Positions 42,829 to 64,000 of a stretch of 64,000 nucleotides of DNA are shown piece by piece. Location: contig OZ255842.1 in assembly GCA_965277805.1 (NCBI GenBank), forward strand, positions 576,001 through 640,000. Direction: 5' to 3'. The notes under the pieces were generated by a model, which saw only the letters and a program-made list of their open reading frames with translations, was not told the DNA's origin and made no database searches. The position numbers and the translations under genes were made by a program. The DNA comes from Candidatus Lustribacter sp. (GTDB lineage: Bacteria; Vulcanimicrobiota; Vulcanimicrobiia; Vulcanimicrobiales; Vulcanimicrobiaceae). Positions within the stretch are counted from its first letter, which is position 1. Each line of letters opens with the position of its first letter.

Positions 42829-42830
42829 GA

Positions 42831-43628
42831 CTAGCGCACCCCCAGCGCTTTTTTCGCCAGCGCAACGTGGGTGTCCATATCGCTCATGCCGGACATGGCG
42901 GTTTCTTCCGAATGCTGCAAGTCGGCGATGCTCTGCGGTTGCACTTTGTACGGCACGTTGTGTTTCTCGACGAACGGATAGTACGCGGCTGCGGCGCCGG
43001 GGAAGCCGATCAGTTTCCAGCCGGCTTTGTTGCGATTGCCGCCATAGAGCGGATCGGCCCAGAAGCCCTCGATCGTGTTCGCGTAGAGCATCTCGAAGAA
43101 CGTTTTGGCCGGCACGGCATCGAAGCTGAGCTTGGCACCGTCGAGCGCCGTTAGGACGTCATCTTGGTGCGCGGCGGAAAGTTTATCGAACGTTTTGCCG
43201 TACGTCTTTTCGCAGTACGCGTTCGTTGCTGCGATGCCGAGGCGATACACTTGCTGCGGCGTGAGCGGCAGCTGGTATCCAAAGTCCGCCGGCGCGTCGG
43301 ATTGCCACGGTCCCGAGCGGTACATCTTGGCCGCGTAACCGAACTGCCCGCTGAGCTGCTGATCGATGTAGAACGCAACTCCCGCTTCGCGCCCGCCGGG
43401 CCCGAGCTCGTCCGTCGGAATCAATCGTTCGACCGCCGCTTCGACGAACGCCGATTCCGGCGAGGTGAGAAACGTGTACGCTTCGGGCTCGCTGCCGAGC
43501 GACGGCACGGGCGCCGGATGCTTCGGAACCGTCGCCGCCTCCGTTGCGGTTGTCGCCGGTATGGTCTCCGCAGCCACCACGGTCCCGACGAGTGCGACAA
43601 AGTCTTTCCGGCTAACGTGGTCCGGCAT
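42831..43628 (-). CDS. Gluconate 2-dehydrogenase subunit 3 (gamma) family
   Basis: Tat-like SRKDF, RLIPTDELGPG, EGFWADPLYGGN..GWKLIGFPG; GGAGG RBS. Confidence 0.9.
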   Translation of the reverse strand: MPDHVSRKDFVALVGTVVAAETIPATTATEAATVPKHPAPVPSLGSEPEAYTFLTSPESAFVEAAVERLIPTDELGPGGREAGVAFYIDQQLSGQFGYAAKMYRSGPWQSDAPADFGYQLPLTPQQVYRLGIAATNAYCEKTYGKTFDKLSAAHQDDVLTALDGAKLSFDAVPAKTFFEMLYANTIEGFWADPLYGGNRNKAGWKLIGFPGAAAAYYPFVEKHNVPYKVQPQSIADLQHSEETAMSGMSDMDTHVALAKKALGVR

Positions 43629-43700
43629 ACGGCGTCCTCCGCAACTGGTTGAAAGCTCTCCGGGCCAGGTTACCACCGCGGCGCCGTGAAGGCTAGTCCT

Positions 43701-43790
43701 ATGTTTCGGCGTCGCGCAGCCGTGACCGGCTACGATCCGAAGATCCTCACCCCCACCCTCGACCCCGACGAACTCGTAACGAAACTCTGA
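43701..43790 (+). CDS. Candidate 29-aa small ORF upstream of pirin
   Basis: MFRRRAAVTGYDPKILTPTLDPDELVTKL; its stop codon overlaps the GAGGT RBS of the pirin gene. Confidence 0.35.
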   Translation: MFRRRAAVTGYDPKILTPTLDPDELVTKL

Positions 43791-43797
43791 GGTCAAG

Positions 43798-44577
43798 ATG
43801 AGCGAACCCATGGTCCTGCCCCAACCCGTGTTCGACGTTCAACGAGCGGCGGAACGCGCGTCGTTCGATTTCGGCTGGCTGCGCACGAGCCACTCGTTCA
43901 GCTTTGCCGATTATTACGATCCGCGCAACGTGAACTGGGGCGCGCTGCGCGTGTTCAACGACGATCGCGTCGAAGGCGGCAAGGGCTTCGGCACCCATCC
44001 GCATCGCGATATGGAAATCGTGACCTACGTGCTCTCGGGCCGGCTCGAGCATCGCGACAGCATCGGCAGCCACGGCGTCGTCGGTCCGGGCGGCGTGCAG
44101 TTCATGAGCGCCGGCACCGGGATCCAGCACTCGGAATTCAACCACTCGCCAACCGAGGAATTGCACTTCTTGCAGATGTGGGTGCTGCCGGGCACGTTGG
44201 GCGTGAAGCCGCAATACGGCCAGATGGAATTCGGCTCCGAGGAGCGGCACGACACCTGGCTGCTCGTTGCGTCCGGCCAGCCCGGCCTCAGCGCGCCGGT
44301 TGCGCTCACGCAAGACGCGTCGTTCCGGGTGAGCCGTCTCTCCGACCACACGCTGCGCCACACATTCGATCCCGGACGGTTGGGCTTTTTCTTCGTTGCG
44401 TCGGGAACGATTGCGGCATCCGCGTTCGACAGCAGCGATGCCCCGGTCGGAACGCCGGTCGTGCTTCGCGACGGCGATGCCGTGCGGATCGCGGGGGTGA
44501 CGCGCTTTGAAATCAGCGGCGATGGTGAGGTCGCGCTGTGGGACGTGCCGCGGCCGCCCGACGGAGCGAACGACTAG
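43798..44577 (+). CDS. Pirin family protein
   Basis: HSFSFADYYDP, GFGTHPHRDMEI, MSAGTGIQHSE, LQMW. Confidence 0.95.
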   Translation: MSEPMVLPQPVFDVQRAAERASFDFGWLRTSHSFSFADYYDPRNVNWGALRVFNDDRVEGGKGFGTHPHRDMEIVTYVLSGRLEHRDSIGSHGVVGPGGVQFMSAGTGIQHSEFNHSPTEELHFLQMWVLPGTLGVKPQYGQMEFGSEERHDTWLLVASGQPGLSAPVALTQDASFRVSRLSDHTLRHTFDPGRLGFFFVASGTIAASAFDSSDAPVGTPVVLRDGDAVRIAGVTRFEISGDGEVALWDVPRPPDGAND

Positions 44578-50753: not shown

Positions 50754-51517
50754 AGGCTGCCCGCGTGCTTCGTCATCCCGCCGTCGATGACGTAGGTGGC
50801 GCCGGTGATATAGGCGGCCGCCTCCGACGCCAGAAACACCACGACGCCCGCGATCTCTTCCGGTTTGGCCATACGCCCGAGCGGAATCTCGGCGAGCAGT
50901 GCCTCGTATTCTTTCGCGTTCGCTTTCAGAGCGGCGTCCATCGGCGTATCGACGGCCCCCGGCGCGACGTCGTTCACGGTAATGTGCTCCTTCGCGAGCT
51001 CGAGGGCGACGGTACGCATGAGCATTCGCACACCGCCTTTCGCCGCACAGTACGGAGCGTTGGTCGGCATCGGCAACTCTTCATGGACCGACGAGATGTT
51101 GATGATGCGGCCGCCGCGCTTTTGCTTGACCATTTGCTTGGCGGCGGCTTGGGTGCAGAGCCACACGCCGGCAAGATTGACGTCGATCACCTTCCGGAAG
51201 AGTTCGAACGGCGTCTCCAGGAACGGATGTTTTTGTTCGATTCCGGCGTTATTGATCAAGATGTCGACGCCGCCGAACGCATTTACGGCAGCGGCGACAA
51301 GCGACTCAACTTGCTCCGGATCGGCAACATCTGCGCCGGTCGCAATCGCGCGCGCGCCGAGATTTTCGATCTCCTCGACCACGGCGTTGGCCGGTGCGAC
51401 GTCGCCATGATAGTCGATGACCACCGCTGCGCCTTCGCGGGCGCACGCGAGCGAAATAGCTTTGCCGATTCCGGTATCGCCGCCGGTAACGATGGCGACC
51501 TTATCCTTCAGGTGCAT
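50750..51517 (-). CDS. Glucose 1-dehydrogenase-like SDR
   Basis: TGGDTGIG, NNAG, ISSVHE, YCAAKGG. Confidence 0.9.
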   Translation of the reverse strand: MHLKDKVAIVTGGDTGIGKAISLACAREGAAVVIDYHGDVAPANAVVEEIENLGARAIATGADVADPEQVESLVAAAVNAFGGVDILINNAGIEQKHPFLETPFELFRKVIDVNLAGVWLCTQAAAKQMVKQKRGGRIINISSVHEELPMPTNAPYCAAKGGVRMLMRTVALELAKEHITVNDVAPGAVDTPMDAALKANAKEYEALLAEIPLGRMAKPEEIAGVVVFLASEAAAYITGATYVIDGGMTKHAGSL

Positions 51518-52796
51518 GATCCTCCTCGGCCGTCAGACGGTCGGAAATCCAGGGCAGACGCGCGACGTCTCGAGCGAACAAACCGCTCACGGTCCAATCA
51601 CCGGCGACCCGCAGCTTGCGCGTTACGCCGGGCAACTGCGCGAGGTAATACGCGCGCCACATCAGCCACGCCGGAAGGCCGGCGATCATGTGGTTACCGG
51701 GCAACTGAGCCACGGCATCGCGATCGCCGAGCGAAGCCATCATGCCGAGCGGCAGATAGGTAAACGGCTTCAGCGGTTTGCCGGTTAATGAGGCGACGAT
51801 ATTTTGAGCGAGCAGCGGTCCCTCGCGCACGGCGTTTTGGGCCAGCGGAGACACGTCGCCGCCGCCGCGTTTGGGGATCCGGGCGCAGTCGCCGACCCCC
51901 CAGATGCCGGCGACCCCCGGAACCGCGAAGTCGCTCCCGACCACCAGGGCGCCGTGTTCCGAGGTTTGCAAGCCCGTCGTGCGCAGCAGCGGCGCCGGCT
52001 TTTCTCCGGCCGTCCAAACGATCGTGTGACAGTCGAAGCGTTTGCCGCTTTTCAGCGCGAGGCCATCGGCGTCGGCCGACGCGACGTCTTCGCCAAGCTC
52101 GATACGGACGTTGCGGCGGCGCAGAGAGGCCGCGGCGCGTTTCCCGAACCAGGGAGCGAGGTGCTCGAGCAGCCGTTTTCCGCTCTCGACGATCACGATC
52201 TCCGGGGTCAGGTCGTGTAAGGTGGGATAAAAACGATGCAGCCGCTTGAGATAGGCGGCAAGCTCGCCCCCGGCCTCAACGCCCGTAAAACCGCCGCCGA
52301 CGATAACGAAACGCAGCCACCGGTCGCGCTCGACGCGATCGCGCGAGGCGGCCGCCGCTTCGAACGCGCTGCCCACGCGGGCTCGCAGTTTTGCTGCGTC
52401 CGGCAACGTCTTGAGCAGATACGCGTGCTCGGCAATGCCGGGAATACCGTGCGTGCTCGACTCCGAACCGAGTGCAAACACGAGATGGTCGAAGGGCAGC
52501 GTCGTTTGCGCACCGAGTACGCGAAGGTCGATGGTCACGGCGCGCGAGGCAACGTCGACCGACGATACTTCGCCCACCACAACCTCCGCGCGTTTCAGGG
52601 CCACCCGCAGCGGTTGCACGATGGCGCGCATATCGAGCGTACCCGTCGCCACTTCGGGCAGCATCGGCGTAAAGAGCTGGAAATTCTCGCGGCTAACGAG
52701 TGTGATATGGGCGTCTGACGGAGCACGCCGTTCCAGCTCCTGCGCGGCAGTTACACCGGCAAAACCTCCGCCCAAGATAACGATCTTCGTTGCCAC
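51501..52796 (-). CDS. ndh: Type II NADH:quinone oxidoreductase family
   Basis: GGGFAG, FTPMLPEVATG, GGGFTGVE, GDCA, AQNA.REG, WRAYYL. Confidence 0.85.
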   Translation of the reverse strand: MATKIVILGGGFAGVTAAQELERRAPSDAHITLVSRENFQLFTPMLPEVATGTLDMRAIVQPLRVALKRAEVVVGEVSSVDVASRAVTIDLRVLGAQTTLPFDHLVFALGSESSTHGIPGIAEHAYLLKTLPDAAKLRARVGSAFEAAAASRDRVERDRWLRFVIVGGGFTGVEAGGELAAYLKRLHRFYPTLHDLTPEIVIVESGKRLLEHLAPWFGKRAAASLRRRNVRIELGEDVASADADGLALKSGKRFDCHTIVWTAGEKPAPLLRTTGLQTSEHGALVVGSDFAVPGVAGIWGVGDCARIPKRGGGDVSPLAQNAVREGPLLAQNIVASLTGKPLKPFTYLPLGMMASLGDRDAVAQLPGNHMIAGLPAWLMWRAYYLAQLPGVTRKLRVAGDWTVSGLFARDVARLPWISDRLTAEEDHAPEG

Positions 52797-52804
52797 GAAA
52801 ACCG

Positions 52805-53929
52805 TTAAACCTCGTACGCCGCCGCATCGCTGCGACGAAACTCGAGCCCAATCCCGGGTCGGAAGAGGTCCGGAGCCAGTGTGCCGTTCACCGGATCCGA
52901 AGGCCCATCGAAGAACATCTTCTCGATGCGCACATGATCGAAGAAGAACTCCATGTGGCGCAGCATTTTTGCGGCCGCAGCCGCGTGCACATGAAGGTAC
53001 GGCGCGCAGTGTGTCGAGAGCGGCACGAGGGCGCTCTGGCACAGGCCGTCGACGGCGAGAAAACCGGTAAAGCCTCCGCAACGCGTTGCATCCGCTTGAA
53101 GGACGTCGACGGTTCGCGCTTCGAGCATGCGCGCGTAGTGATACGGAGCGTAGCCATATTCGCCGGCCGCGACCTCCATGGTCGCGGGTGCGCGTTCACG
53201 CACCGCTGCCAAGCCCTGAAAATCCTGATGGTACACGGGCTCCTCGAACCAGGTCACGCCCGACGCCTCGAATTGGGAGGCGAGTTCGAGCGCTTGCTTT
53301 ACGGCGTACGCTCCATTGGCGTCAACGAACAGTTCCGCGCTCTCGCCGATCGCGTGCCGAGCGGCGGCAATCCGGCGTACGTCGGCACCGGGATCGCGAC
53401 CGATCTTCATCTTGACGCGCGGAATGCCGGCGGCAACCCAGCCGCTGAGCTGCGAGGTGAGTTCGGTAATATCGTACGAGGTAAACCCGCCGCTGCCGTA
53501 GACCGGAACGCGCTCGCGAGCCGTTCCGAGCAAGGCGGCGACCGGCATGTCCAGGAGTTTGCCGCGCAGATCCCACAGTGCGATGTCGACCGCCGATATC
53601 GCCATCGCGGTGATGCCCTCACGGCCGAGATTGCGAATCTTTGCAACCATGCTCGACCAGATCTCGCCGTGGGCGAACGCGTTCGCACCGACGACGACGT
53701 CGTGCAGGGTGTCGCGGATCAACGTCGCGGTTGCGGTGTCGGCATACGTGTAGCCAAGGCCGGTGCATCCGCCGGATTCGAGCTCAACGAGCACGAGCGT
53801 CGTCGCGTCCCAGACGTGCGTCCCGTCGGATTCATTCGGGCTCTCAGTCGGTACTCGGTAGGCCCGTACATCCATGCGCCGGACGGGCGCCGCGGTGCTC
53901 GAACGCGGACCCTGCACGCTCGACTTCAC
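52805..53929 (-). CDS. Mandelate racemase/enolase superfamily protein
   Basis: ESDGT..WD.TT, AVDIALWDL, KMK, DAN, EEP, GEYGY; GTG start overlaps the upstream TGA. Confidence 0.9.
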   Translation of the reverse strand: MKSSVQGPRSSTAAPVRRMDVRAYRVPTESPNESDGTHVWDATTLVLVELESGGCTGLGYTYADTATATLIRDTLHDVVVGANAFAHGEIWSSMVAKIRNLGREGITAMAISAVDIALWDLRGKLLDMPVAALLGTARERVPVYGSGGFTSYDITELTSQLSGWVAAGIPRVKMKIGRDPGADVRRIAAARHAIGESAELFVDANGAYAVKQALELASQFEASGVTWFEEPVYHQDFQGLAAVRERAPATMEVAAGEYGYAPYHYARMLEARTVDVLQADATRCGGFTGFLAVDGLCQSALVPLSTHCAPYLHVHAAAAAKMLRHMEFFFDHVRIEKMFFDGPSDPVNGTLAPDLFRPGIGLEFRRSDAAAYEV

Positions 53930-55716
53930 GGATGTGCCTCGTGCGGGAAGATGCCGGAGAGCAAGCTCTTGACCGATTGTCCGATGACCTGCATCTCGTT
54001 GGGGTCGCCTTTGACCAGCGCGGACGTTAGGTTCTTCGCTTGCTCGAACGAAATATGGGGCGGGATCATGGCCACGTTCGGATCGGTGTAGGCTTCGTAG
54101 ACCACGGGGCGATCGGCCGACAAAGCGGCGTCCCACGCCGGCCCGACGTCCTCGGGGCGATCGACGCGGATTCCCCGCAGGCCGATCGATTCTGCATATC
54201 TCGCGTACGGGAAATCGGGCAGTTGTTGTGAGGCGTCGAACTTCGGGTCGCCGGACTCGATTCGCATCTCCCACGTAACCTGGTTGAGATCGCGATTGTT
54301 GAGCACGAGGATGATCAGGCGCGGGTCCGACCATCGCTTCCAGTATTTCGCGATGGTGATCAGTTCGGCGTTGCCGTTCATCTGCATCGCACCATCGCCC
54401 GTCATTCCGATGGCCACGCGATCGGGAAAGCAGAACTTCGCGGCGATGGCGTACGGCACGGCCGGACCCATCGTCGCGAGGCTGCCCGAGAGCGAATACT
54501 TCATCCCGCGGCGCATTTGAAGATCGCGCGCCGACCAATTCGCCGATGTGCCGGCGTCGCCGCTCAGAATACAGTCGTCCGGCAGACGTGCTGAGAGTTC
54601 GGTAAAGACGCGTTGCGGGTTCAGCGGCTCCGCGGCATCCAGGGCGCGCGCATGAGTCACGTCGTTCCACCGTGCGCGCTTTTGCGCGATGCGGTTGCGC
54701 CATGTCGGATCGGCTTTTTGCGTCAGGAGCGGCAACAACGACCGCAGTGTCGCCGCCGCATCGCCGATGAGGTTGACTTCGTTGGCGAACCGCATCGAGA
54801 GATTCTTGCCGTCAAGGTCGATCTGGACGCCGCGCGCTTGGCCCGCCTTCGGTAGAAACTGGGCGTACGGATATGTCGTACCGACCATCAAGAGGGTGTC
54901 GCACGATGCCATCATGTCTGAACTCGGTTCAGTACCAAGAAGACCCAATGTGCCGGTTACATACGGGAGGTCGTCGGGAAGCGCGGCTTTACCAAGCAAC
55001 GCCTTTGCGACGCCGGCCCCTAACCGATCGGCGACGGCCATCACCTCATCGGCCGCCCCGAGGGCGCCGGCACCGATCAGCATGGCAACGCGTTCACCGG
55101 AGTTGAGGATTTCGGCAGCCGCGGCCAGATCGTATTCGGCCGGGATAACGACCGGCGCGCTGTAGCCGATACCCGACTGGAGTGTATTCGCGGCGTGCGG
55201 CGGATGTTCGACGGCATCCATTTCTTGAATGTCTTTGGGCACGATGATGCAGGTGACGCTCCGTGTTGCATGAGCGATGCGAAAGGCGCGGTCGACGATG
55301 TGGCGCGCCGCCGTCGGGCTGGAAATCTGGTAGACGTACTCCGACGCTACGTCCTTGAAAAGATTGACCAGATCAACTTCCTGCTGGTAGTTACCGCCGA
55401 GCGCCGTCGTCGCCGCTTGGCCGACGATTGCAACAACCGGGCGATGATCCAGTTTTGCGTCGTAGAGGCCGTTCAACAAGTGGATCGCGCCGGGACCGGA
55501 CGTGGCCAAGCAGCAAGCGACCTCGCCGGTATACTTCGCGTCGGCGGTCGCCATAAAAGCGGCCATTTCCTCATGCCGCACCTGAACGAAATCGATCTTA
55601 CCGTCGAGCCGGTCGAAGGCGCCCATGATCCCGTTGATGCCGTCGCCCGGATAACCGTAGATACGGCGAATCCCCCAAGCGTGAACCCGTTGTAGGATGA
55701 AATCACTGACAGTCAT
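53926..55716 (-). CDS. ThDP-dependent enzyme, pyruvate oxidase/PoxB-like
   Basis: YGYPGDGING, RHEE, TSGPG, ThDP motif GDGAMQMNG...NN; AGGAG RBS. Confidence 0.92.
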   Translation of the reverse strand: MTVSDFILQRVHAWGIRRIYGYPGDGINGIMGAFDRLDGKIDFVQVRHEEMAAFMATADAKYTGEVACCLATSGPGAIHLLNGLYDAKLDHRPVVAIVGQAATTALGGNYQQEVDLVNLFKDVASEYVYQISSPTAARHIVDRAFRIAHATRSVTCIIVPKDIQEMDAVEHPPHAANTLQSGIGYSAPVVIPAEYDLAAAAEILNSGERVAMLIGAGALGAADEVMAVADRLGAGVAKALLGKAALPDDLPYVTGTLGLLGTEPSSDMMASCDTLLMVGTTYPYAQFLPKAGQARGVQIDLDGKNLSMRFANEVNLIGDAAATLRSLLPLLTQKADPTWRNRIAQKRARWNDVTHARALDAAEPLNPQRVFTELSARLPDDCILSGDAGTSANWSARDLQMRRGMKYSLSGSLATMGPAVPYAIAAKFCFPDRVAIGMTGDGAMQMNGNAELITIAKYWKRWSDPRLIILVLNNRDLNQVTWEMRIESGDPKFDASQQLPDFPYARYAESIGLRGIRVDRPEDVGPAWDAALSADRPVVYEAYTDPNVAMIPPHISFEQAKNLTSALVKGDPNEMQVIGQSVKSLLSGIFPHEAHP

Positions 55717-55752
55717 GGCCGCGCGAACTCCTCGATGGCGAATATAGTCATC

Positions 55753-55778
55753 ATACCCGACTAATTTTTGTAACAAAC
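55753..55778 (-). promoter_or_regulatory. SigB/SigF-type promoter for the leftward operon
   Basis: Minus strand reads GTTT-N16-GGGTAT, 36 nt before the ATG at 55716. Confidence 0.65.
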
Positions 55779-55804
55779 GGATGCCGCGACAAGAAAGTGG
55801 GTAA
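55779..55804 (+). promoter_or_regulatory. SigB/SigF-type promoter for the rightward operon
   Basis: GGATG-N15-GGGTAA, 34 nt before the GTG at 55839. Confidence 0.5.
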
Positions 55805-55838
55805 GGACCGCGTAATCACCGATCCTTCGGAAGAAGCC

Positions 55839-56792
55839 GTGACCGAAAAATCTCCGGAACCACCGCTGCTACAAGACGCCCAAGCAATCGCCAAAGAGAT
55901 ACGTGAGGGGCGTTTCCAGCGCTGGCTTTCCCTCATTGCGGGTGTGTCGAGCGTTTTGAGCGGTCTCGAAGTGGCCTACGAACACTATCGGGGCGGGTAC
56001 AGCCGTCGGATCATGGTGACGCCCGTGATCCTGAGCGCAGCGCTCGCGGTAACCGGAGTTGCCGGATTTCGCAGTGCGCGTTCGGCGCGTGTCTTGCTGC
56101 CCTTCGTTTCGGCCGTAACGGCGCTCGACGCGTTGACCGGTTTTTATTTTCATGTTCGCGGCATCGCGCGCAAACCGGGTGGCTGGCGTTTGCCTGTTGT
56201 GAACATCGTCATGGGCCCGCCGATCTTTGCGCCTCTTCTATTCGCGACGAGCGCCTATTTGGGCTTAATCGCCTCGCAAATGAAGCGGTCCGATACGACT
56301 GAAGGCGGCGGGCTTCCGCTCGCTGCGCATGCGCGACACTGGACGACGCGCCTGGGCGCAAAGCATGAAGCGATCGACGCGGAGCAAGACCTGCGTGAAG
56401 GGCGTTTCCAAAAGCACCTCGCAGTTGCGACGGTCATCGCGGCGGGCTTTAGCGGCTTTGAGGCCTGGTACTCCCACTACAAGAGCAACTTCCGCAATCG
56501 CGCGCAGTGGACACCGGTCGTCATTGCTCCGTTGCTCATGGTCGCCGGAGGCGGTGCAATCGCAAGCGTTCGCACGGCGCATACGTGGTTACCGGCCATT
56601 TCAGCCGTCGCCCTCATCGACGGCTCCGTCGGCTTTTTCTACCACGTTCGCGGCGTGCTCCGGCGGCCCGGCGGTCGTGCGTTACTCTTCTACAACGTCA
56701 TCTACGGGCCGCCGATCTTCGCGCCGTTACTGTTCGCCGCGAGCGGCTTTCTCGGACTATTGGCGAGCCTGCTGCGGAGAGAGCACGAGTGA
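55839..56792 (+). CDS. Internally duplicated membrane protein (2 x ~4 TM) with conserved His residues
   Basis: Both halves carry REGRFQ, E..Y.HY, TPV, GF..HVRG, PGG and GPPIFAPLLFA. Confidence 0.8.
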   Translation: MTEKSPEPPLLQDAQAIAKEIREGRFQRWLSLIAGVSSVLSGLEVAYEHYRGGYSRRIMVTPVILSAALAVTGVAGFRSARSARVLLPFVSAVTALDALTGFYFHVRGIARKPGGWRLPVVNIVMGPPIFAPLLFATSAYLGLIASQMKRSDTTEGGGLPLAAHARHWTTRLGAKHEAIDAEQDLREGRFQKHLAVATVIAAGFSGFEAWYSHYKSNFRNRAQWTPVVIAPLLMVAGGGAIASVRTAHTWLPAISAVALIDGSVGFFYHVRGVLRRPGGRALLFYNVIYGPPIFAPLLFAASGFLGLLASLLRREHE

Positions 56793-57556
56793 ACGAAAAC
56801 GATACCGAGGATCCGCGCCCGATCGATCCACGCACGGGCTCACCGCTTCGTGCTCTCACGCAGCCGGGCTACTATCCGGACTTCAGCACGCTTGCGCAGC
56901 AAAAATATTGGGATCCGAAGACGCGTTCGGTCATCCTGGATCGCGTGCATAACGTCCCGGCTTCGCGGTTTTTCGACGCGGGCCAAACGCGATTGCTCGA
57001 GGCGATCTGCGCGCGTCTTGTCCCGCAAGACGACCGCGACGACGCCCATCGCATTCCGATCGTCCCGCAAATCGATCGCCGGCTAGCTGACGGCGACGGC
57101 GATGGGTACCGCTATGAGGACATGCCCCCCGATTCAGAAGCGTATCTCCTCGGTCTTCAAGCAATCGACGAGTCGGCCCAACGCTTGTACGGCCGCGCCT
57201 TCATCCTGGCCGCATTTTCACAACAGGACGACCTCTTGAAGTCGCTGCACGACGGAAAGCCGCTCTTCGATCACCCGGTGTGGCAGCGGCTGCCGGTCAA
57301 ACGGTTCTGGATGCTGCTCCTTTCAGATTGCATCGAAGCGTATTACTCGCATCCATACGCGTGGGACGAGATCGGCTTCGGCGGACCGGCGTACCCGCGC
57401 GCATACATTCGGCTGGAGAACGGCGAGCCCGAGACCTGGGAAGTGGACGAGGTGCGCTACCTTTGGGCGGCGCCGCTTTGGTCGGCATCATCTGACGCGG
57501 TGACGTCCGGCGACGCCGATCATTACGGTGCAGCCGGACAGGGCGGTTCACATTGA
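56789..57556 (+). CDS. Gluconate 2-dehydrogenase subunit 3-like protein, no export signal
   Basis: RLVPQD, DGYRYEDMP.D, YYSHPYAWDEIGFGGPAYPRAY; GTGA overlap with the upstream gene. Confidence 0.85.
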   Translation: MNENDTEDPRPIDPRTGSPLRALTQPGYYPDFSTLAQQKYWDPKTRSVILDRVHNVPASRFFDAGQTRLLEAICARLVPQDDRDDAHRIPIVPQIDRRLADGDGDGYRYEDMPPDSEAYLLGLQAIDESAQRLYGRAFILAAFSQQDDLLKSLHDGKPLFDHPVWQRLPVKRFWMLLLSDCIEAYYSHPYAWDEIGFGGPAYPRAYIRLENGEPETWEVDEVRYLWAAPLWSASSDAVTSGDADHYGAAGQGGSH

Positions 57557-59298
57557 AGGGGCCGCTCGGTGGAGCGTTCGAGGGCGCTGCGGGTAAACCG
57601 CACATGCTCGGATCGCTGCAGAAACTCGACGTACCGATGCGGCATTTTGCGCCTGACGACGAGGTCGACTACGCGATCGTCGGCACCGGAGCCGGAGGCG
57701 GCGTGCTTGCACAACGGCTTGCGCGAGCCGGGTTTCGCGTCGTTGCATTCGACGCTGGTCCGTTATGGGATACCGAACGCGATTGGGTCAGCGATGAAAA
57801 AGGCGCGCATAATTTGTATTGGAACGATCTGCGGGTTACCGGCGGTGACCATCCGCTCGCGTTCGGCGCGAACAATAGCGGCAAAGGCGTCGGGGGCGGC
57901 ACGGTGCACTGGGCCTCGTTCACGCCGCGCTTTCATCCATCGGATTTTCACACCTTTACGCTCGACGGCGTCGGCGCCGATTGGCCGCTGACGTATGACG
58001 ACCTCAAGCCGTACTACGAACTGCTGGAGTTAGAACTTCCGGTTGCCGGGCCGGCGCACTACCCCTGGGGCGATCCGCATGGCTATCCATATGCACCGCA
58101 CCCGATGGGCGGCGTCGGCGACGCGCTTATTCGAGGATGCACGTCGCTCGGCATCGGCGTGTCCGCGGGCGGTCCGGTTGCCATACTTAGCGCATCGCGC
58201 GGCGACCGACCGCACTGTATCTATCGCGGCTTCTGCATCCAAGGCTGTAAGGTTGGGGCGAAGGCGAGCACGTTGATCACTCACGTGCCCGACGCCATCG
58301 CACATGGCGCGGAAATCCGGCCCAACAGCATGGTGTCGCGGGTGCTCATGGGAAAAGAACGGCGCGCGACCGGAGTCGCATACTTCGATGCCGACGGCAA
58401 GGAACACGTGCAGCGCGCCCGGGCCGTTGTCGTCGCGGGATATGCCATCGAAACGCCGCGCTTATTGCTCAACTCGGCGTGCGACGGCTTCGAGAATGGT
58501 CTCGCGAATTCGAGTGACACCGTCGGGCGCTACCTCATGGCCCAGGCCGGAAACGTCATCGCCGGACGTTTCGACGATCCGATACGCATGTACAAAGCCC
58601 CGCCGGCCCACGCCCTCACCGAGGAATTCTACGAGACCGATCCCAACCGCGGCTTCGCGCGCGGCTTCGCAATTCAAACCGTCGGCCCGCTCCCAATTGC
58701 GTTTGCGAAGCAATTGGCAAACGCCAAAGGCGACTGGGGTTGGAGCCTGCGCCGCGACATGATGGATTACAACCACTGGGCGGCATTCGGCTTTCTCGGC
58801 GAAATCTTGCCGCATGCGGAGAACCGCGTGCAGCTTGCGGACGACCGTGACCGTTTCGGGATCCCGGTCGCCAAAGTAACGTTCAGCTTGCACGACAACG
58901 ACACGAAGCTGATCGAATTCGGCAAGCGCAAGACGATGGAGATCATGTCGGCAGCCGGTGCTCGCGAGGTCGTACAGGAGGCGCGCTACGCGCACCTGGT
59001 CGGCGCTGCGCGGATGGGAACCGATCCCGCAACGTCCGTCGTCGACGGGTTGGGCCGCACCCATGACGTCGCGAATCTGTTCATCTGCGACGGTAGCATC
59101 TTGCCGACGCAAGGCTCGGCGAATCCAGGGTTGACGATCATGGCGCTTGCGGCCCGTATCGCCGACCACTTGATTTGTGCCGGCGACGACGTGTTTCGCA
59201 CAAAGCGTCTTCCGATGAAAGCAACGCCGATTCGCCACGATCTTTCGCCGCCGGATACCTGGGGCCACGGCATGACTCGGATTCCGAAGCAACGCTAA
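57553..59298 (+). CDS. GMC oxidoreductase flavoprotein
   Basis: GTGAGGG, GVGGGTVHW, Cys cluster CIYRGFCIQGC, AHLVGAARMG, SANPGLT. Confidence 0.92.
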   Translation: MKGPLGGAFEGAAGKPHMLGSLQKLDVPMRHFAPDDEVDYAIVGTGAGGGVLAQRLARAGFRVVAFDAGPLWDTERDWVSDEKGAHNLYWNDLRVTGGDHPLAFGANNSGKGVGGGTVHWASFTPRFHPSDFHTFTLDGVGADWPLTYDDLKPYYELLELELPVAGPAHYPWGDPHGYPYAPHPMGGVGDALIRGCTSLGIGVSAGGPVAILSASRGDRPHCIYRGFCIQGCKVGAKASTLITHVPDAIAHGAEIRPNSMVSRVLMGKERRATGVAYFDADGKEHVQRARAVVVAGYAIETPRLLLNSACDGFENGLANSSDTVGRYLMAQAGNVIAGRFDDPIRMYKAPPAHALTEEFYETDPNRGFARGFAIQTVGPLPIAFAKQLANAKGDWGWSLRRDMMDYNHWAAFGFLGEILPHAENRVQLADDRDRFGIPVAKVTFSLHDNDTKLIEFGKRKTMEIMSAAGAREVVQEARYAHLVGAARMGTDPATSVVDGLGRTHDVANLFICDGSILPTQGSANPGLTIMALAARIADHLICAGDDVFRTKRLPMKATPIRHDLSPPDTWGHGMTRIPKQR

Positions 59299-59357
59299 GC
59301 GAGGCGAGCCCGGCGACGACGGGCGAACTGCGCGAGCGAGCTCACGGCGACGCCGCC

Positions 59358-60251
59358 GTGTCCGTGAACTACGTCGTGCTCGTCATTGCGTCTTGCGTCA
59401 TCGCAACGCTCGGGCTTCTCGAGAACAGCGTCGCCGTGATCATCGGGGCAATGATCATCGCCCCGCTGATCGGTCCCATCCAGTCATTTGCGTTCGCCGG
59501 TGTCGACGGCGACGCGATTCTGTTGCGCAAATCGCTCACTGCCGCCGCGATCGGTGCGGTCATGTCGATCGCGATCTCATGGCTCATTGCGGCGCTCGTG
59601 GCGCTCCCGGCCTACGGTTCGGAAGTCGCAGCACGCACGCGGCCGAACGTCCTCGATTTGGTGATCGCGCTAGCCGCCGGCGGCGTCGCCGGGTACGCAC
59701 GCATTCGTCCATCGATTGCGAGTACGGTGGCGGGGACGGCAATCGCCGTTGCGTTGATGCCGCCCTTGTGCGTCGTTGGGCTCTTACTGGGTGCGCGAGC
59801 GTGGCAAGAGGCGATCGGCGCCGCGCTGCTTTTCGGCACGAACTTTCTCGGGATCGGGCTCGCGTGTATGATCGTGTACGCCGTCGCGGGTCGATTCGAA
59901 CGTCACAGCCGCTCGACGCTGATCGTGACGGCGGTCGTGGGGATCGCGATGACGTTTCCGCTTGCGGCAAGCTTCCTCGAGATCGCGCGCGAGTCACGAA
60001 TTGAAGCGGAGATCCGCAACGAACTCGTTTCCGACACCGTAACGTTTCAGCGAACGCGGCTCATCGGCGCGACATTCGATTGGTATGCGAACCCGCTTCA
60101 AGCCCGGTTGGACGTCAGTTCCGGAAGCGCGATTTCCGCGTCCCAGGTGCGCGATTTGGAGGCGTTCTTAGGCCGCCGCATCGGCCGGCCGGTCAAACTC
60201 GTACTCGAAGTGAGCCGCTACGATGTCGTGACCGACAGCGGGCATGAATGA
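59358..60251 (+). CDS. DUF389-family membrane protein (start uncertain)
   Basis: IATLGLLENSVAVIIGAMIIAPL, ARTRPN..DL.IALAAG, GTAIAVALMPPL. Confidence 0.85.
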   Translation: MSVNYVVLVIASCVIATLGLLENSVAVIIGAMIIAPLIGPIQSFAFAGVDGDAILLRKSLTAAAIGAVMSIAISWLIAALVALPAYGSEVAARTRPNVLDLVIALAAGGVAGYARIRPSIASTVAGTAIAVALMPPLCVVGLLLGARAWQEAIGAALLFGTNFLGIGLACMIVYAVAGRFERHSRSTLIVTAVVGIAMTFPLAASFLEIARESRIEAEIRNELVSDTVTFQRTRLIGATFDWYANPLQARLDVSSGSAISASQVRDLEAFLGRRIGRPVKLVLEVSRYDVVTDSGHE

Positions 60252-60278
60252 CCAATGAGCCGGCGACGCTATGGCTTT

Positions 60279-60689
60279 CTATTCCGTCGCAAGTGCCTGC
60301 GCTGCGGGTGCGGGTCGGCGCACCAGCAAGTTGAGTCCGGCCAGCACGACGGCGCCAGCGAGGGCAGCCCAGGTAACAGCCGGCGTGACGTAGGCCGACA
60401 AGCCCAGCGCGCGGTCGAGCGAGATGGCGCCCAGGTCGAATGCCGGGGCCAGCGCGGCGGCGACGTAGAGCGTGTTCAGCTCGTAGCCGCCGTTCGCCGC
60501 GGCGAAGCCCTTGCTGAAGTGGACCGAGACGATCGCCACGACCATGATCATGACGATGAGGGCCGGTCCGATCGGACCGCCGAGGCCCAGGACGGTGAGG
60601 AGACCGCCGCCGAGTTCGGCGCCGGCGGCGCCCAGGACGAAGAGTTTGCCCGGCCTCCAGCCGAGCTGCTCGAAGAAGCCGGACGTGCC
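60279..60689 (-). pseudogene. 5'-truncated DoxX family gene
   Basis: The frame begins abruptly at GTSGFFEQLGWRPG right after TGA TAA; AELGGG, VHFSKGF..NGGYE are present but the first TM and its HG.QK motif are missing. Confidence 0.75.
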
Positions 60690-60694
60690 TTATC

Positions 60695-61071
60695 ATGGCA
60701 TCTGAACCTACGTCAAGTAGCCTGGCTACGGATGATAGCCGGATCGATGTGGCCTTCTGCCCGCGCTTCCATAAAGCCATCGAACTGATCGGCAAGCGCT
60801 GGACCGGCGCCGTCATCCGCGTGCTGCTCGCCGGCCCCCCCGCTTCAACGAGCTGCTGGCGTCCGTGCCCGGTATGTCCGACCGGCTATTGACCGAGCGT
60901 CTGCGCGAACTCGAAGCGGAGCAGCTGATCCGCCGCGACGTCCAGCCCGGCTCGCCGGTGCGCGTCGTCTATTCGCTTACGTGCGCAGGCGCCGAGCTGC
61001 AGGTTGCTCTCGACGCGGTCGGTCACTGGGCCGAGCGCTGGATCGATCCGCCGGCCGCACCCGACGTATAG
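60695..61071 (+). pseudogene. Frameshifted HxlR-family regulator
   Basis: CPRFHKAIELIGKRWTG in one frame and RFNELL..VPGMSDRLLTERLRELE...VVYSLT in another; the shift is at a C7 run (60835-60841). Confidence 0.8.
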
Positions 61072-61105
61072 GCATTACCGGCCGCCTTCTCATATTCTCT
61101 CCGGC

Positions 61106-62188
61106 ATGACGAAAATTCGCGAGTTCATGACGGGCTGGGAAGGTGACACCCAGATTCAGATGACCGGTTGGACCGAGCGCACGAAAGAAGGCCTGCGCGG
61201 CACCGCCAAAGGCAAGCGCAAACCGCCCAACCTGCGCCCGTTCGATCTCATTCGCGCGCCGCATCAGCCGGTGCCGCTGCTCGCGAACGAAGACATGCGC
61301 GTCAGCGTCGATTCCGCCGCCGGTCCCGCGCTCTTCTTTCACCGCAACATCAACTTCGACGAGACGATCTTTCAGTTCGCCGGAACGAGCCGCGTCGAAA
61401 CCGAGATGGGCGTCGAGACGCTCGCACCGGGCGAGATGCTGCTGATCCCGCGCGGGATCGCGCATCGCAGCATCGGCGACAAAGATTCGCTGCGCCAGAT
61501 CGTGCACGTTCGCGACGCAATCACGGCCGTGATGGGCGAAGAGCTCTGCACGAGCCGCACGCAGTTCGAGCTCACGCGCATCGGCGGTCCGGATTACTCC
61601 GCCGCCGCGGCCGTTCCGGCACCGAGCGGCACCGTAATCGAGAAGATGTTTATCTGGGATGACGATCCGGCCGATGCGACCGAGGTCGAGCGGCAGGCGA
61701 GCGAGATGGTCGGCGTCGGCAGCACCGAGCGCGACAAGAAGATCAGCGCCGTGCGCCGGCTGCGGCCCTTCGATCTGTTCGAAGACGTCACCGGACGCAA
61801 AGGGCCCGGGCCGAAGTTCATGTCGTCGAACAACGCAATGTTTGAAGTGTATAACACGGTCGGCGAGCAGTTCGCGTTTCACCGCGCGCTCGAGAGCGAA
61901 GAGTTCGGCCTACAGTTCATGGGCGATAACACCAACATGTCCGAGTTCGAAGAGTCGTTCCCGATGACGCCGGGCGCGTGGTTCCTCATTCCGCTTGGCA
62001 TCGCGCATTCGGTCAAAGATTGCAAGCCTGATTTCCGGCGCATGGTGATCTACTCGCGCTTTCCGTTCAAGGTGCTGGCGGATGAATCGATGCACTTGAT
62101 CGAGAGCCGCTTCGACGTGCGCGAAACGGTGCTGGAAGAAGCGCCGTGGCATGCGGCCTCGCGCGAGCTCGCCGGCGCGACCGCGTGA
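61106..62188 (+). CDS. Bicupin, homogentisate dioxygenase-like double-stranded beta-helix protein
   Basis: Two repeats: RPFDL..FHRN..DE..FQ..IPRGIAH and RPFDL..FHRA..EE..LQ..IPLGIAH. Confidence 0.7.
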   Translation: MTKIREFMTGWEGDTQIQMTGWTERTKEGLRGTAKGKRKPPNLRPFDLIRAPHQPVPLLANEDMRVSVDSAAGPALFFHRNINFDETIFQFAGTSRVETEMGVETLAPGEMLLIPRGIAHRSIGDKDSLRQIVHVRDAITAVMGEELCTSRTQFELTRIGGPDYSAAAAVPAPSGTVIEKMFIWDDDPADATEVERQASEMVGVGSTERDKKISAVRRLRPFDLFEDVTGRKGPGPKFMSSNNAMFEVYNTVGEQFAFHRALESEEFGLQFMGDNTNMSEFEESFPMTPGAWFLIPLGIAHSVKDCKPDFRRMVIYSRFPFKVLADESMHLIESRFDVRETVLEEAPWHAASRELAGATA

Positions 62189-63360
62189 ACGTCGTCCGGC
62201 AACTTCTGGCGGCAGCGACCGCCGCGGCGATCGCGTTGACGACGGCATCGGCCGCGCCCGATCCGTTCGTGATTCCGGTCATCCTCAACGGCACCGGAGC
62301 GAACGGCTACGCCGGGCAAACCGAAACGGCGGCGCTGCACGTCTTCGAAGATTATTATAACAAGCACGGCGGTATCAACGGACGGCCGATCCATTTCACG
62401 ATCTACGACGATCAGACCGAACCGCGCGTCGCGGTTCAACTCGCCAATCAGGTGCTCGCGGCGAATCCGAAGCCGCTTGTCGTGCTCGGTTCGGGACAGG
62501 TTGCGACGTGCGCGGCGATGGCGCCGCTGTTCGAAAACGGTCCGGTGAACTATTGCTTCACGCCCGGCTTTTCACCGAAGCCCGGCGGCTACGTTTTCTC
62601 CGCCTCGGCGTCACTCGAGAAGATACTACCGGCGCAAGTGCGCTTCGCTCGCGGCCGCAATTGGAAGCGCATCGCCAACGTTTCGGTCACGACGGCGACT
62701 GGTCAATCGGCCGACTTCTATCTCAAGTACGCGATGGGATTGCGCGAGAACCGCGGCATGGAACTCGTCTTCAACGAGGCGTTCAATCCGGCCGACATCA
62801 GCGTCAGCGCGCTCGTTTCGCGCCTGAAGACCACCAACGCCCAAGCGATCATCACGCCGGCGTCGGGCGCCGCTTTCGGCACGCTCTTGCGCGCGCTCAA
62901 CGATGCCGGGGTTCATTTACCCGTGTTGACGTCGGCGGCGAACGAGCAACCCGATCTCTTGAAACAGTACACCGGCTTCTTGCCCACCGAGACGTACTTC
63001 AACGGTATGTTGTATTACGCGCGCGACGCGATCGGCAATGGGCCGCTGCGCGACCAGATCGACACGTTCTACTCGGCCTTCAAGGCCTCAGGCGCGCCGT
63101 ACACGCCCGACAGCGGTCAGGCGTGGGATCCGGCGCTGATCGTGCTCTCCGGTTTGCGCAAGCTCGGCCCCAAGGCCACGGCAGCCCAACTGCGCGATTA
63201 CATCGCCGGCCTGCACGGCTTCGCAGGCTCGAGCGGGTTCTACGATTTCCGCAGCAACGACCAGCATGGCCTCGATTCGGACGCCGTGATCTTCGTGCGC
63301 TGGGATCCGAAGAAGGGCGACTTCTTCAACGCCTCGCGCCGCGGCGGCGCCCCGCTTTGA
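62185..63360 (+). CDS. Branched-chain amino acid type ABC solute-binding protein
   Basis: Signal peptide, NKHGGINGRPI, DDQT, AWDPA...LRKLGP; paralog of 39898-41076. Confidence 0.88.
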   Translation: MNVVRQLLAAATAAAIALTTASAAPDPFVIPVILNGTGANGYAGQTETAALHVFEDYYNKHGGINGRPIHFTIYDDQTEPRVAVQLANQVLAANPKPLVVLGSGQVATCAAMAPLFENGPVNYCFTPGFSPKPGGYVFSASASLEKILPAQVRFARGRNWKRIANVSVTTATGQSADFYLKYAMGLRENRGMELVFNEAFNPADISVSALVSRLKTTNAQAIITPASGAAFGTLLRALNDAGVHLPVLTSAANEQPDLLKQYTGFLPTETYFNGMLYYARDAIGNGPLRDQIDTFYSAFKASGAPYTPDSGQAWDPALIVLSGLRKLGPKATAAQLRDYIAGLHGFAGSSGFYDFRSNDQHGLDSDAVIFVRWDPKKGDFFNASRRGGAPL

Positions 63361-63376
63361 TGAAGGTCCGCTGCAC

Positions 63377-64000
63377 GTGAGCGGCTTGGAGAGCTGGAAG
63401 CTTCCGGGCAACGTGGTTCCGCCGGTTACGCCGTTCGATGCGGACGGCAACGTCGACTACGCGCGTTTGCAGCGCGAGATCGACTGGGTGGTCGCATCGT
63501 CACGTCCGGCCGCGATCTGCGTGGCCGGTGTCGAGGCGCAAGAGTATCAGTATCTTTCCGACACGGCGCGGCGCGAATTGATTCGGGAAACGATCGCTGC
63601 GATCGGCGGCCGGGTGCCGGCACTGGTCGGCATCTCGCACGCATCGTACCGGCGCTCGATCGACTTGGCGTCCCTCGCGCACCAGTTGGGCGCGTCGGCC
63701 GTGCAAGTGCTGCTGCCGAACCGTCCGTCGGGCGGCGCAGCGACCACCGGCGAGATCGTCAAGTACTACGAAGCGATCGTGCATGAGAGCGCGTTGCCGG
63801 TCGTCGCCTACCATAACCAAGGTCCGGGCGCCGATCTCGGCGTGCCCGCGTTGATGGAAGTGCTCTCGATCCCCGGCGTCGTGGGGTTGAAGGAGAGCTC
63901 GCGCAATCAGCGTTTCCTCGCGAACTTGCTGCGCGAAGCGCAAACGCGCAAGCTCGGACGGATCTTCACCACGCTCGAAGTGCTGCTCGGGACGCTGATC
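63377..64000 (+). CDS. Dihydrodipicolinate synthase / N-acetylneuraminate lyase family aldolase (3' partial)
   Basis: Not in the ORF track because it runs off the window. VTPFDADGNVDY, GRVPALVG, LPVVAYHN, Schiff-base Lys in GLKESS. Confidence 0.88.
   Translation, partial: MSGLESWKLPGNVVPPVTPFDADGNVDYARLQREIDWVVASSRPAAICVAGVEAQEYQYLSDTARRELIRETIAAIGGRVPALVGISHASYRRSIDLASLAHQLGASAVQVLLPNRPSGGAATTGEIVKYYEAIVHESALPVVAYHNQGPGADLGVPALMEVLSIPGVVGLKESSRNQRFLANLLREAQTRKLGRIFTTLEVLLGTLI

Follow-up and report, generated by a model that had tools for sequence, protein, structure and literature searches.

The window, the whole 64,000-nucleotide stretch of DNA analysed here, encodes an eight-helix membrane protein, a Gluconate_2-dh3-family small subunit and a GMC-family flavoprotein in consecutive genes. 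In related genomes the three genes occur together strictly, and in some lineages the first two are fused. On balance, we favour a reading in which the three genes are co-translated into a membrane-bound, cytoplasm-facing dehydrogenase that reduces quinone in a complex II-like manner, and in which His pockets near the outer face of the membrane are not the first electron acceptor.

To our knowledge, FAD/3Fe-4S dehydrogenases of the kind of B. cepacia FAD-glucose dehydrogenase (BcGDH) were previously known only from the periplasm, where their electrons leave via a tri-haem cytochrome c. Direct-electron-transfer biosensors rely chiefly on enzymes of this kind. In the window, this known catalytic core appears to have been shifted to the cytoplasmic side, together with a membrane subunit of no named family. 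An electron route through the membrane subunit, if established, would represent a new type of entry point into bacterial respiratory chains, and would account for a conserved set of five genes in soil phyla that are abundant but poorly understood.

Table 1 Features of the module in the window.
Feature	Position	Strand	Details
Enolase-superfamily (mandelate racemase / acid-sugar dehydratase-like) enzyme	52805..53872	-	best solved relative 3cyj_A
PoxB-like thiamine-diphosphate flavoenzyme	53926..55716	-	NCBIfam PRK08273; divergent from membrane gene
Eight-helix (2x4) membrane protein, unnamed family	55797..56792	+	331 aa; alternative start GTG 55839 equally possible
Membrane protein repeat 1, residues 26-164	55872..56288	+	GRFQR, E58, H63, D111, G115, H119, N136, GPP, AP
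Membrane protein repeat 2, residues 190-328	56364..56780	+	GRFQK, E222, H227, D275, G279, H283, N300, GPP, AP
Small subunit, Gluconate_2-dh3 family	56789..57556	+	Pfam PF13618, E 1.4e-26
GMC-family FAD dehydrogenase, catalytic subunit	57553..59298	+	Pfam GMC_oxred_N, GMC_oxred_C
Cx5Cx3C, predicted 3Fe-4S ligands C205, C211, C215	58216..58248	+	numbering from ATG 57604

A duplicated membrane protein

An earlier note on this DNA had described two His-bearing repeats with an invariant GPPIFAPLLFA motif. The halves of the membrane protein indeed align with 43% identity over 139 residues at an E-value of 5e-42, which places the duplication far beyond chance. The motifs YEHY and FHVRG of one half return as YSHY and YHVRG in the other, and GPPIFAPLLFA is present twice. 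In the AlphaFold2 model (mean pLDDT 85.8, pTM 0.81) each repeat forms four helices, the fourth of which is kinked at GPP.

The protein has more than 4201 homologues. It matches no family in Pfam or NCBIfam, and 67 members of its family match no Pfam family at its cut-off. The Pfam SPW repeat (PF03779) scores 15.4 bits against the window protein, below the cut-off of 31.5, and gives weak matches in 29 of the 67 members (best E 0.0017). Foldseek found nothing in the PDB at E ≤ 1e-3, a sequence-profile search of the PDB gave chance matches only (E > 0.6), and the ESM Atlas returned only clusters labelled 'hypothetical'. The wide structural search with VIA retrieved generic helical bundles, save for 3d19 and 3dby, a 'conserved metalloprotein' of Bacillus cereus with a duplicated four-helix bundle. 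This best structural match (3d19: Z 15.7, rmsd 3.5 Å, 232 residues aligned; 3dby: Z 15.2; next entry: 9.0) is a soluble protein of 4–5% identity, and helical models typically reach a Z of about 14 by arrangement alone. SdhCD/FrdCD, NarI, FdnI/CybH and cytochrome b561 are absent from the top lists of Foldseek and VIA, which leaves a relation possible. A literature search with subscription journals outside its coverage returned no paper on the membrane partner or the gene module. By these comparisons, the membrane protein appears to be outside every described family.

The flavoprotein and its small subunit

The GMC gene starts either at TTG 57553, overlapping the small-subunit stop (TTGA), or at ATG 57604. 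Its product, a GMC-fold protein with the FAD-binding GxGxxG, is related to the solved structures 6a2u_B (E 5.7e-56, residues 37–540) and 7w2j_A, the large subunit of fructose dehydrogenase (E 3.7e-55); about 35 conserved residues at its C-terminus extend past the 6a2u alignment. The segment HCIYRGFCIQGC matches, column by column, TCCGNNNCMPIC of the BcGDH alpha subunit (6a2u_B), and the three Cys aligned with the BcGDH cluster Cys are kept in 40/40 GMC orthologues, which supports the reading of Cx5Cx3C as a putative 3Fe-4S motif. The BcGDH authors identify the BcGDH Cys as cluster ligands and likewise see a parallel to complex II (PMC6719666). A second report describes the BcGDH cluster as the point where electrons leave for the electron-transfer subunit, haem 3 being 7–8 Å away (PMC9727119). 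The window flavoprotein would likewise carry FAD and a 3Fe-4S cluster at its surface. The absence of a CxxCH protein also held: none is encoded in any stop-to-stop frame of at least 80 aa between positions 50000 and 64000, and among 80 related loci only one has a frame that contains CxxCH at least twice.

The stop codon of the membrane gene (TGA, 56790–56792) overlaps the start of the small-subunit gene (GTG, 56789) by 4 nt (GTGA). The small subunit has neither a twin-arginine motif nor a hydrophobic N-terminus, and the combination of an RR motif with a hydrophobic stretch was detected in 0/72 orthologues. Together with the family match (Table 1), these features confirm the coupling to a signal-less small subunit.

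BcGDH (6a2u), Gluconobacter fructose dehydrogenase (7w2j) and gluconate 2-dehydrogenase are also encoded by three adjacent genes, and share with the window a GMC subunit with FAD and Cx5Cx3C as well as a Gluconate_2-dh3 small subunit. Their small subunit carries a Tat signal, while that of the window does not. Their third subunit is a multi-haem cytochrome c, in place of which the window encodes a membrane protein that is polytopic and has no relation to cytochrome c. Finally, these enzymes are periplasmic, whereas the window enzyme is probably cytoplasmic.

In two clusters, P0271/P0274 and P0375/P0391, natural in-frame fusions link the membrane protein through its C-terminus with the small subunit. 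P0271 (599 aa) and P0274, which stem from two sources, are distinguished by 3 residues; P0375 (548 aa) and P0391 do not differ over their common stretch and possibly represent a single data set. P0271 and P0375 are 54% identical, and their linkers differ, both of them without a hydrophobic segment. The fusions are rare, amounting to two clusters among thousands of homologues, and are known from protein sequences alone. As natural in-frame fusions, they support the presence of the membrane protein and the small subunit in a physical complex. In the AlphaFold2 model of P0375 (pLDDT 80.9, pTM 0.56) the placement of the domains is not confident and the docking face is unreadable. Five further candidates (P0126, P0194, P0272, P0273 and P0253) look like frameshifted run-ons and were set aside, as was P0146, an isolated case of PaaX joined to one repeat.

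Conserved residues and topology

For residue conservation, 247 homologues were aligned and 230 of them, all full-length, were kept and counted. The His conservation that the earlier note had put up for checking is nearly complete, with H63, H119 and H227 present in all 230 sequences and H283 in 229. G115 and G279 are located four residues N-terminal of H119 and H283, and an Arg follows two positions after each TM3/TM7 His. The helices also contain conserved acidic residues (E58 in 224/230, E222 in 230/230, D111 in 226/230); D111 is lost in the most distant family members, and D275 is replaced by Asn in 46 of the 230 homologues. Further conserved positions precede TM1 (G38 in 227, F40 in 226, Q41 in 224 and R42 in 219 of 230) and TM5 (G202 in 226, F204 in 225). 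The most conserved residues are grouped at one face of the protein, which is the outer face in our preferred reading.

Both faces consist of about one third K/R, and the positive-inside rule is therefore uninformative. We infer an N-in/C-in topology because the C-terminus can be fused to the cytoplasmic small subunit and because several homologues have cationic N-tails, which are long and strongly cationic in P0187, P0198 and P0238. The conserved positions ahead of TM1 and TM5 agree with this orientation. In it, the four His would come to lie at the outer face together with E58/E222, N136/N300 and the kinks at GPP, opposite the flavoprotein cluster. The His pockets would then be about 30 Å from the flavoprotein, and a His-ligated haem in them could not directly accept the 3Fe-4S electrons. 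Two observations count against calling the His face outer. A conserved face is the expected site of a partner or cofactor, and the His-side loops, with a mean of 13.4 K+R vs only 0.12 D+E, are unusual for the periplasm and would fit the cytoplasmic side. P0121 and P0122 were not used as topology evidence, as their extra N-terminal hydrophobic segment is doubtful and possibly an upstream ORF extension.

The opposite orientation (N-out/C-out) would turn the His to the cytoplasm, where each bundle, or the interface of the repeats, would bind a quinone or a haem b with two His ligands within electron-tunnelling distance of the 3Fe-4S cluster, making the protein a b-type cytochrome anchor. We consider this unlikely, although much of the conservation is in its favour: the four His themselves, the spacing of Gly and Arg around them, and the conserved, most cationic His-side loops, which would suit docking of a cytoplasmic partner. 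The position of the His, on the first and third helix of an up-down bundle, is compatible with bis-His ligation as in cytochrome b. The average N-tail is not net positive either (6.1 K+R vs 6.6 D+E). However, two diverged fusions connect the C-terminus to a signal-less small subunit without a hydrophobic segment in the linker, and K/R-rich N-tails, which reach 40–140 residues in some homologues, are hardly exportable. A weaker argument is that no haem-protein family or fold was matched. A complex prediction with the GMC subunit, two haem molecules and residues 25–331 of the membrane protein, the small subunit being left out, yielded ipSAE values of 0.19 and 0.12, too low for a verdict (mark 0.32). 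The earlier note had proposed that the membrane protein is an anchor that takes the place of cytochrome c. Synteny, gene overlaps and fusions uphold its part as a dedicated partner of a cytochrome-less GMC/small-subunit pair, but the proposed haem beside the cluster is not supported, since the fusions and the cationic N-tails would put the His on the far face.

Proposed electron transfer

In the cytoplasm-facing dehydrogenase that we prefer, the eight-helix subunit would stand in for the tri-haem cytochrome c that is associated with the membrane in the periplasmic enzymes, since no c-type haem protein can be made in the cytoplasm. The small subunit, having lost its Tat signal, would serve only as a structural partner. 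The soluble pair may dock at the cytoplasmic face through contacts with the two GRFQR/K helix extensions, which protrude there, and with short Arg-rich loops. At this interface the 3Fe-4S cluster would pass its electrons to (mena)quinone, as the 3Fe-4S cluster of succinate dehydrogenase does; no quinone site is recognisable at the sequence level. The pocket of His, Glu, Asp, Asn and GPP in each four-helix bundle would be located near the outer face and would not be the first electron acceptor. Its possible ligands are a distal haem b or a metal; alternatively, the pocket could be a path for protons.

The likeness to complex II would be functional, with a cytoplasmic flavoprotein, a terminal 3Fe-4S cluster, a small helical anchor and quinone reduction. 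Anchors of complex II have 3+3 or 5 helices, while that of the window has 2x4, and no relation in sequence or fold was found. In addition, the conserved His of the window anchor are confined to a single face of the membrane, which is probably the distal face.

A conserved gene neighbourhood

A relative of the membrane protein was found in at least 582 species genomes, and the module occurs on many soil metagenome contigs as well. Synteny was counted on the 80 best of these genome loci. The small-subunit gene is directly downstream of the membrane gene in 78/80 loci and a GMC gene, 67–94% identical, is present in 74/80, every miss of either being a contig that ends first. Of the 61 pairs of membrane and small-subunit genes that could be measured, 44 share a 4-nt overlap. 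Single-repeat forms of about 140–165 aa show the same gene order in metagenome contigs (small subunit in 72/80, GMC in 59/80); on contigs over 5 kb, the counts are 43/43 and 42/43.

Two further enzymes, which the earlier reading had omitted, belong to the module. A relative of the TPP enzyme is encoded in 67/80 loci, mostly on the same strand and directly upstream of the membrane gene, and an MR-like relative is found within 6 kb of it in 64/80. The commonest order, seen in 25 loci, is MR-like, TPP, membrane, small and GMC on one strand. Recurrent neighbours comprise the TPP enzyme, the MR-like enzyme, an SDR, an M24 protein and a VKOR-like protein, with no dedicated transporter among them.

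The open reading frame of the window TPP enzyme was listed up to 55776, while the family start fits ATG 55716. All three TPP-enzyme domains are present (Pfam). The protein reaches 994 bits with PRK08273 (cut-off 724) and 381 bits with the E. coli PoxB model PRK09124 (cut-off 792), so that it fits the former, although E. coli PoxB (3ey9, E 1.8e-86) is its nearest solved relative. Unlike E. coli PoxB, it is genetically linked to the membrane protein and the GMC enzyme. The MR-like enzyme is closest to 3cyj_A, an uncharacterised MR/MLE protein (E 1.4e-116), and is closer to acid-sugar dehydratases and cycloisomerases (E ~1e-42) than to mandelate racemase (3.5e-28). It reaches the cut-off of no NCBIfam model.

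The presence of these two enzymes in the neighbourhood suggests that the substrate of the module is a 2-hydroxy acid, a sugar or a sugar acid. The substrate would be oxidised to a 2-keto compound and this would undergo oxidative decarboxylation, both steps feeding the quinone pool. The mandelate pathway consists of a racemase, a membrane-bound 2-hydroxy-acid dehydrogenase and a TPP decarboxylase, and by analogy the module would combine a TPP enzyme and a membrane-bound dehydrogenase with an enzyme of the MR superfamily. The dehydrogenase of the mandelate pathway is an FMN enzyme, whereas that of the window is of the GMC/FAD-FeS type, and its TPP enzyme belongs to the oxidase (PoxB) type and is no benzoylformate decarboxylase.

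It is conceivable, although quite unlikely in our estimate, that the 2x4-helix protein represents a new class of respiratory anchor, in whose outer half the invariant His/Glu/Asp pockets form proton half-channels or contain a distal cofactor and couple quinone reduction by the cytoplasmic FAD/3Fe-4S dehydrogenase to a proton gradient, and that it also serves the PoxB-like TPP protein as a second quinone-reducing enzyme. If true, this would constitute an undescribed membrane-bound route from 2-hydroxy acid to 2-keto acid and on to oxidative decarboxylation, common to Acidobacteriota, Vulcanimicrobiota, Verrucomicrobiota, Chloroflexota and the carriers of single repeats.

We find it very unlikely that the membrane protein is a non-redox conduit attached to the enzyme, either an importer of anionic hydroxy acids or a proton path, with a flavoprotein that reduces quinone alone. 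PoxB binds membranes without an anchor, and PoxB or choline dehydrogenase could serve as precedents for quinone reduction at the membrane surface. The conserved E58, E222 and D111 inside helices, with His and Asn at one face, the strongly cationic character of both faces and the lack of a dedicated transporter among the recurrent neighbours would all suit such a role. The architecture is a poor fit, as two separate four-helix bundles are not known as a transporter design and the best structural matches are generic four-helix bundles. The 1:1 fusion with the small subunit suggests a structural subunit instead, and two acidic positions are not fully kept, D275 being Asn in some homologues and D111 being lost in the most distant members. 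That the genes are mere neighbours, with a membrane protein of unrelated function and no complex, is scarcely credible, given their co-occurrence at every locus with enough flanking DNA, the 4-nt overlaps, the natural fusions and the conservation of the gene set across at least four phyla in both single- and double-repeat architectures.

The electron transfer proposed for the cytoplasm-facing dehydrogenase is directly testable in Acidicapsa isolates. Among the carriers, Acidicapsa species are cultured, and Edaphobacter and Granulicella are represented by MAGs only.

Conservation of the three-gene feature

The membrane protein, the Gluconate_2-dh3 small subunit and the GMC flavoprotein form a three-gene feature that is real and widespread. 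The stop codon of the membrane gene and the start of the small-subunit gene share the sequence GTGA, and a TTG codon at which the GMC gene may start overlaps the stop of the small-subunit gene. One genome per species was scanned, yielding 582 loci, and the best 80 of these were analysed; they come from Vulcanimicrobiota, Acidobacteriota, Verrucomicrobiota, Chloroflexota and other taxa. The small subunit lies directly 3′ of the membrane gene in 78 of the 80 loci, the GMC gene is present in 74, and every locus missing either one is a contig that ends before it. The 4-nt overlap of the membrane and small-subunit genes recurs in 44 of 61 pairs. Across the 80 loci, identity to the window proteins is 67–94% for the GMC protein, 54–79% for the membrane protein and 45–78% for the small subunit.

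Half-size homologues of the membrane protein with a single repeat also exist. Their metagenome contigs keep the same gene order (small subunit 72/80, GMC 59/80); among contigs longer than 5 kb (n = 43), the small subunit is present in 43 and GMC in 42. Three genomes (G201, G202 and G204, carrying loci L061, L042 and L007) contain the membrane and small-subunit pair in two copies at separate sites.

Features of the window and of related loci
Feature	Sequence	Position	Strand	Remarks
Second GMC + Gluconate_2-dh3 pair	window	41068-43811	-	
NDH-2-like pyridine-nucleotide-disulfide oxidoreductase	window	51501-52700	-	same strand as and directly downstream of MR-like gene
MR-like and TPP enzyme genes	window	52805-55716	-	divergent
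Membrane protein	window	55797-56792	+	331 aa; alternative start GTG 55839 (choice of the earlier note)
Small subunit	window	56789-57556	+	255 aa; Pfam Gluconate_2-dh3
GMC flavoprotein	window	57553 or 57604 to 59298	+	581 or 564 aa; Pfam GMC_oxred_N/C
Conserved GMC C-terminal tail	window	~59170-59298	+	residues ~541-581; consensus RRxLSPPxTWGxGVPRL
DUF389 membrane protein	window	59175-60251	+	overlaps the region of the GMC gene at its 3′ end
Same-frame, single-TGA junctions	L026, L037, L048, L160, others			membrane and small-subunit genes
SDR and VKOR-like genes	L006-L013, L020-L022	~5400-6010		
SDR and VKOR-like genes	L039, L040, L062, L075, L076			downstream of GMC
GH15/glycogen-debranching-like genes	L010	2063-4453		
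GH15/glycogen-debranching-like genes	L053	10816-12585		
GH15/glycogen-debranching-like genes	L033	9533-11737		

A duplicated membrane protein with invariant histidines

The earlier note had described a duplicated, His-bearing membrane protein, and both features are borne out: its halves are 43% identical over 139 residues (E 5e-42), and H63, H119 and H227 are present in 230/230 and H283 in 229/230 of the full-length homologues retained from 247 aligned. Across the same 230 sequences, position 58 is always acidic (Glu in 224, Asp in 6), E222 never varies and D111 is kept in 226; little or no variation is seen in G115, N136 or the GPP and AP motifs. A GRFQR/K motif precedes helices 1 and 5 (G38 in 227, F40 in 226, Q41 in 224, R42 in 219). 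The confident AlphaFold2 model (67-row alignment, pLDDT 85.8, pTM 0.81) has four helices per repeat, the fourth broken by GPP.

The family is large, with more than 4201 proteins at E ≤ 1e-3 among 8000 candidates and 683 representatives at 50% identity. No Pfam or NCBIfam family is assigned to the membrane protein; weak, sub-cut-off matches to the Pfam SPW repeat occur in 29/67 members (best E 0.0017). Source annotations, where given, are hypothetical or stray automatic labels, with no named family, and literature searches found no paper on this membrane partner. Foldseek against the PDB returned nothing at E ≤ 1e-3. In a structural search against representatives, the top matches were the soluble duplicated four-helix-bundle "metalloproteins" 3d19 (Z 15.7, 232 residues aligned) and 3dby (Z 15.2), scores to be read knowing that helical models attain about Z 14 through arrangement alone; only generic four-helix membrane bundles followed (Z ≤ 9).

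The catalytic pair

The closest solved relatives of the GMC protein are the alpha subunit of the B. cepacia FAD-glucose dehydrogenase (BcGDH; 6a2u_B, 5.7e-56) and the large subunit of fructose dehydrogenase. Its Cx5Cx3C motif, a spacing that the earlier note linked to the 3Fe-4S cluster of FAD glucose dehydrogenases, is invariant in 40/40 orthologues and aligns with the cysteines that hold this cluster in BcGDH (PMC6719666). Two further observations of that note also stand: frames of at least 80 aa at window positions 50000-64000 encode no CxxCH protein, and a Tat-like N-terminus is absent from the small subunit of the window and from all 72 orthologues. From these sequences we infer that the enzyme probably remains in the cytoplasm. 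The catalytic pair is clearly related to that in BcGDH, fructose dehydrogenase and gluconate 2-dehydrogenase, but the defining Tat small subunit and cytochrome c subunit of those complexes are missing here. In BcGDH the cluster lies at the surface, with haem 3 of cytochrome c 7–8 Å away; the cytochrome c subunit contacts alpha as well as the small subunit (PMC9727119).

The C-terminal tail of the GMC protein, with P549 and G556 invariant in 40/40, falls outside the part alignable to BcGDH alpha and may mediate docking to the membrane subunit.

The second GMC pair in the window has a small subunit with a Tat-like N-terminus (SRKDFVALVGTVVAA), a flavoprotein with a different Cys pattern (Cx2Cx2Cx4C, CVYCGYCERFSC) and no adjoining cytochrome c gene.

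Fusions, topology and proposed mechanism

A search among longer relatives revealed in-frame fusions of the membrane protein and small subunit. Fusion P0271 (599 aa) differs from P0274, from a second source, by 3 residues; P0375 (548 aa) lies on a 257-kb contig and is matched exactly by P0391 from another source. P0271 and P0375 share only 54% identity, and their linkers, which are of different length and sequence, both lack a hydrophobic stretch. At several unfused loci the two genes lie in one frame with a single TGA between them, so that loss of this codon would be enough to fuse them. At one such locus, L037, no start codon follows the TGA ahead of the conserved PGYYPGF motif; an error in assembly or read-through of the stop may explain this junction.

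Since they are fused naturally, the membrane protein and small subunit belong together, and the fusions would place the membrane-protein C-terminus on the small-subunit, cytoplasmic side. With eight helices, the N-terminus and inter-repeat linker would therefore be cytoplasmic too. Long K/R-rich N-tails in homologues P0187, P0198 and P0238 agree with this. The His-side loops, which are the most conserved, count against it, with 13.4 K+R and hardly any acidic residues; the opposite face is just as cationic, so the charge rule gives no decision. Overall, the sequences make an N-in/C-in topology probable. In that orientation the four His and the GPP kinks, together with E58/E222 and N136/N300, would sit on the outer face or close to it, an estimated 20 or so helix residues, roughly 30 Å, from the cytoplasmic boundary, judging from helix positions in the AlphaFold2 model.

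On balance we lean towards the trio being a cytoplasm-facing, complex II-like quinone reductase, although the searches showed no sequence or fold relation between this membrane protein and the anchors of complex II. The FAD of the GMC protein would oxidise the substrate, the 3Fe-4S cluster would pass the electrons on to quinone where the soluble pair meets the anchor's cytoplasmic face, and the outer-face pockets would serve some other role. The earlier note had instead proposed a membrane partner that replaces cytochrome c as a haem-b or quinone-binding anchor. The pairing holds, through synteny, gene overlaps and fusions, but haem next to the cluster requires the opposite topology and is unlikely. 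That the membrane protein is a conduit for substrate or protons seems more doubtful still.

The wider module

Two more genes are part of the module. A PoxB-like TPP enzyme (NCBIfam PRK08273; nearest structure E. coli PoxB, 1.8e-86) is present in 67 of the best 80 loci, and is frequently next in the single-repeat contigs. An MR-like enzyme of the enolase superfamily (nearest structure the uncharacterised 3cyj, 1.4e-116, then acid-sugar dehydratases) is present in 64. The most frequent order, in 25 loci, is MR-like, TPP, membrane, small and GMC on the same strand, from which the window differs. Linkage with PoxB-type and MR-type enzymes may point to a 2-hydroxy/2-keto acid or a sugar acid as the substrate. 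Distribution within phyla is patchy: the module occurs in 12/201 sampled genomes of the window's phylum, in one family only, and in 6/401 of Acidicapsa's phylum.

The NDH-2-like protein of the window has TIGR03169 as its best NCBIfam match, under the cut-off, and the DUF389 protein has no counterpart among the best 80 loci. Two genes absent from the window, for an SDR dehydrogenase and for a small membrane protein of the VKOR family, accompany the module in 23/91 long loci. One VKOR-like representative has CRKY at the CxxC position of VKOR, and in about 10 loci 8–14 nt are shared between the VKOR-like gene and the start of the membrane gene. In some loci, GH15 glucoamylase/trehalase-like and glycogen-debranching-like genes flank the module, which hints at a link with sugars.
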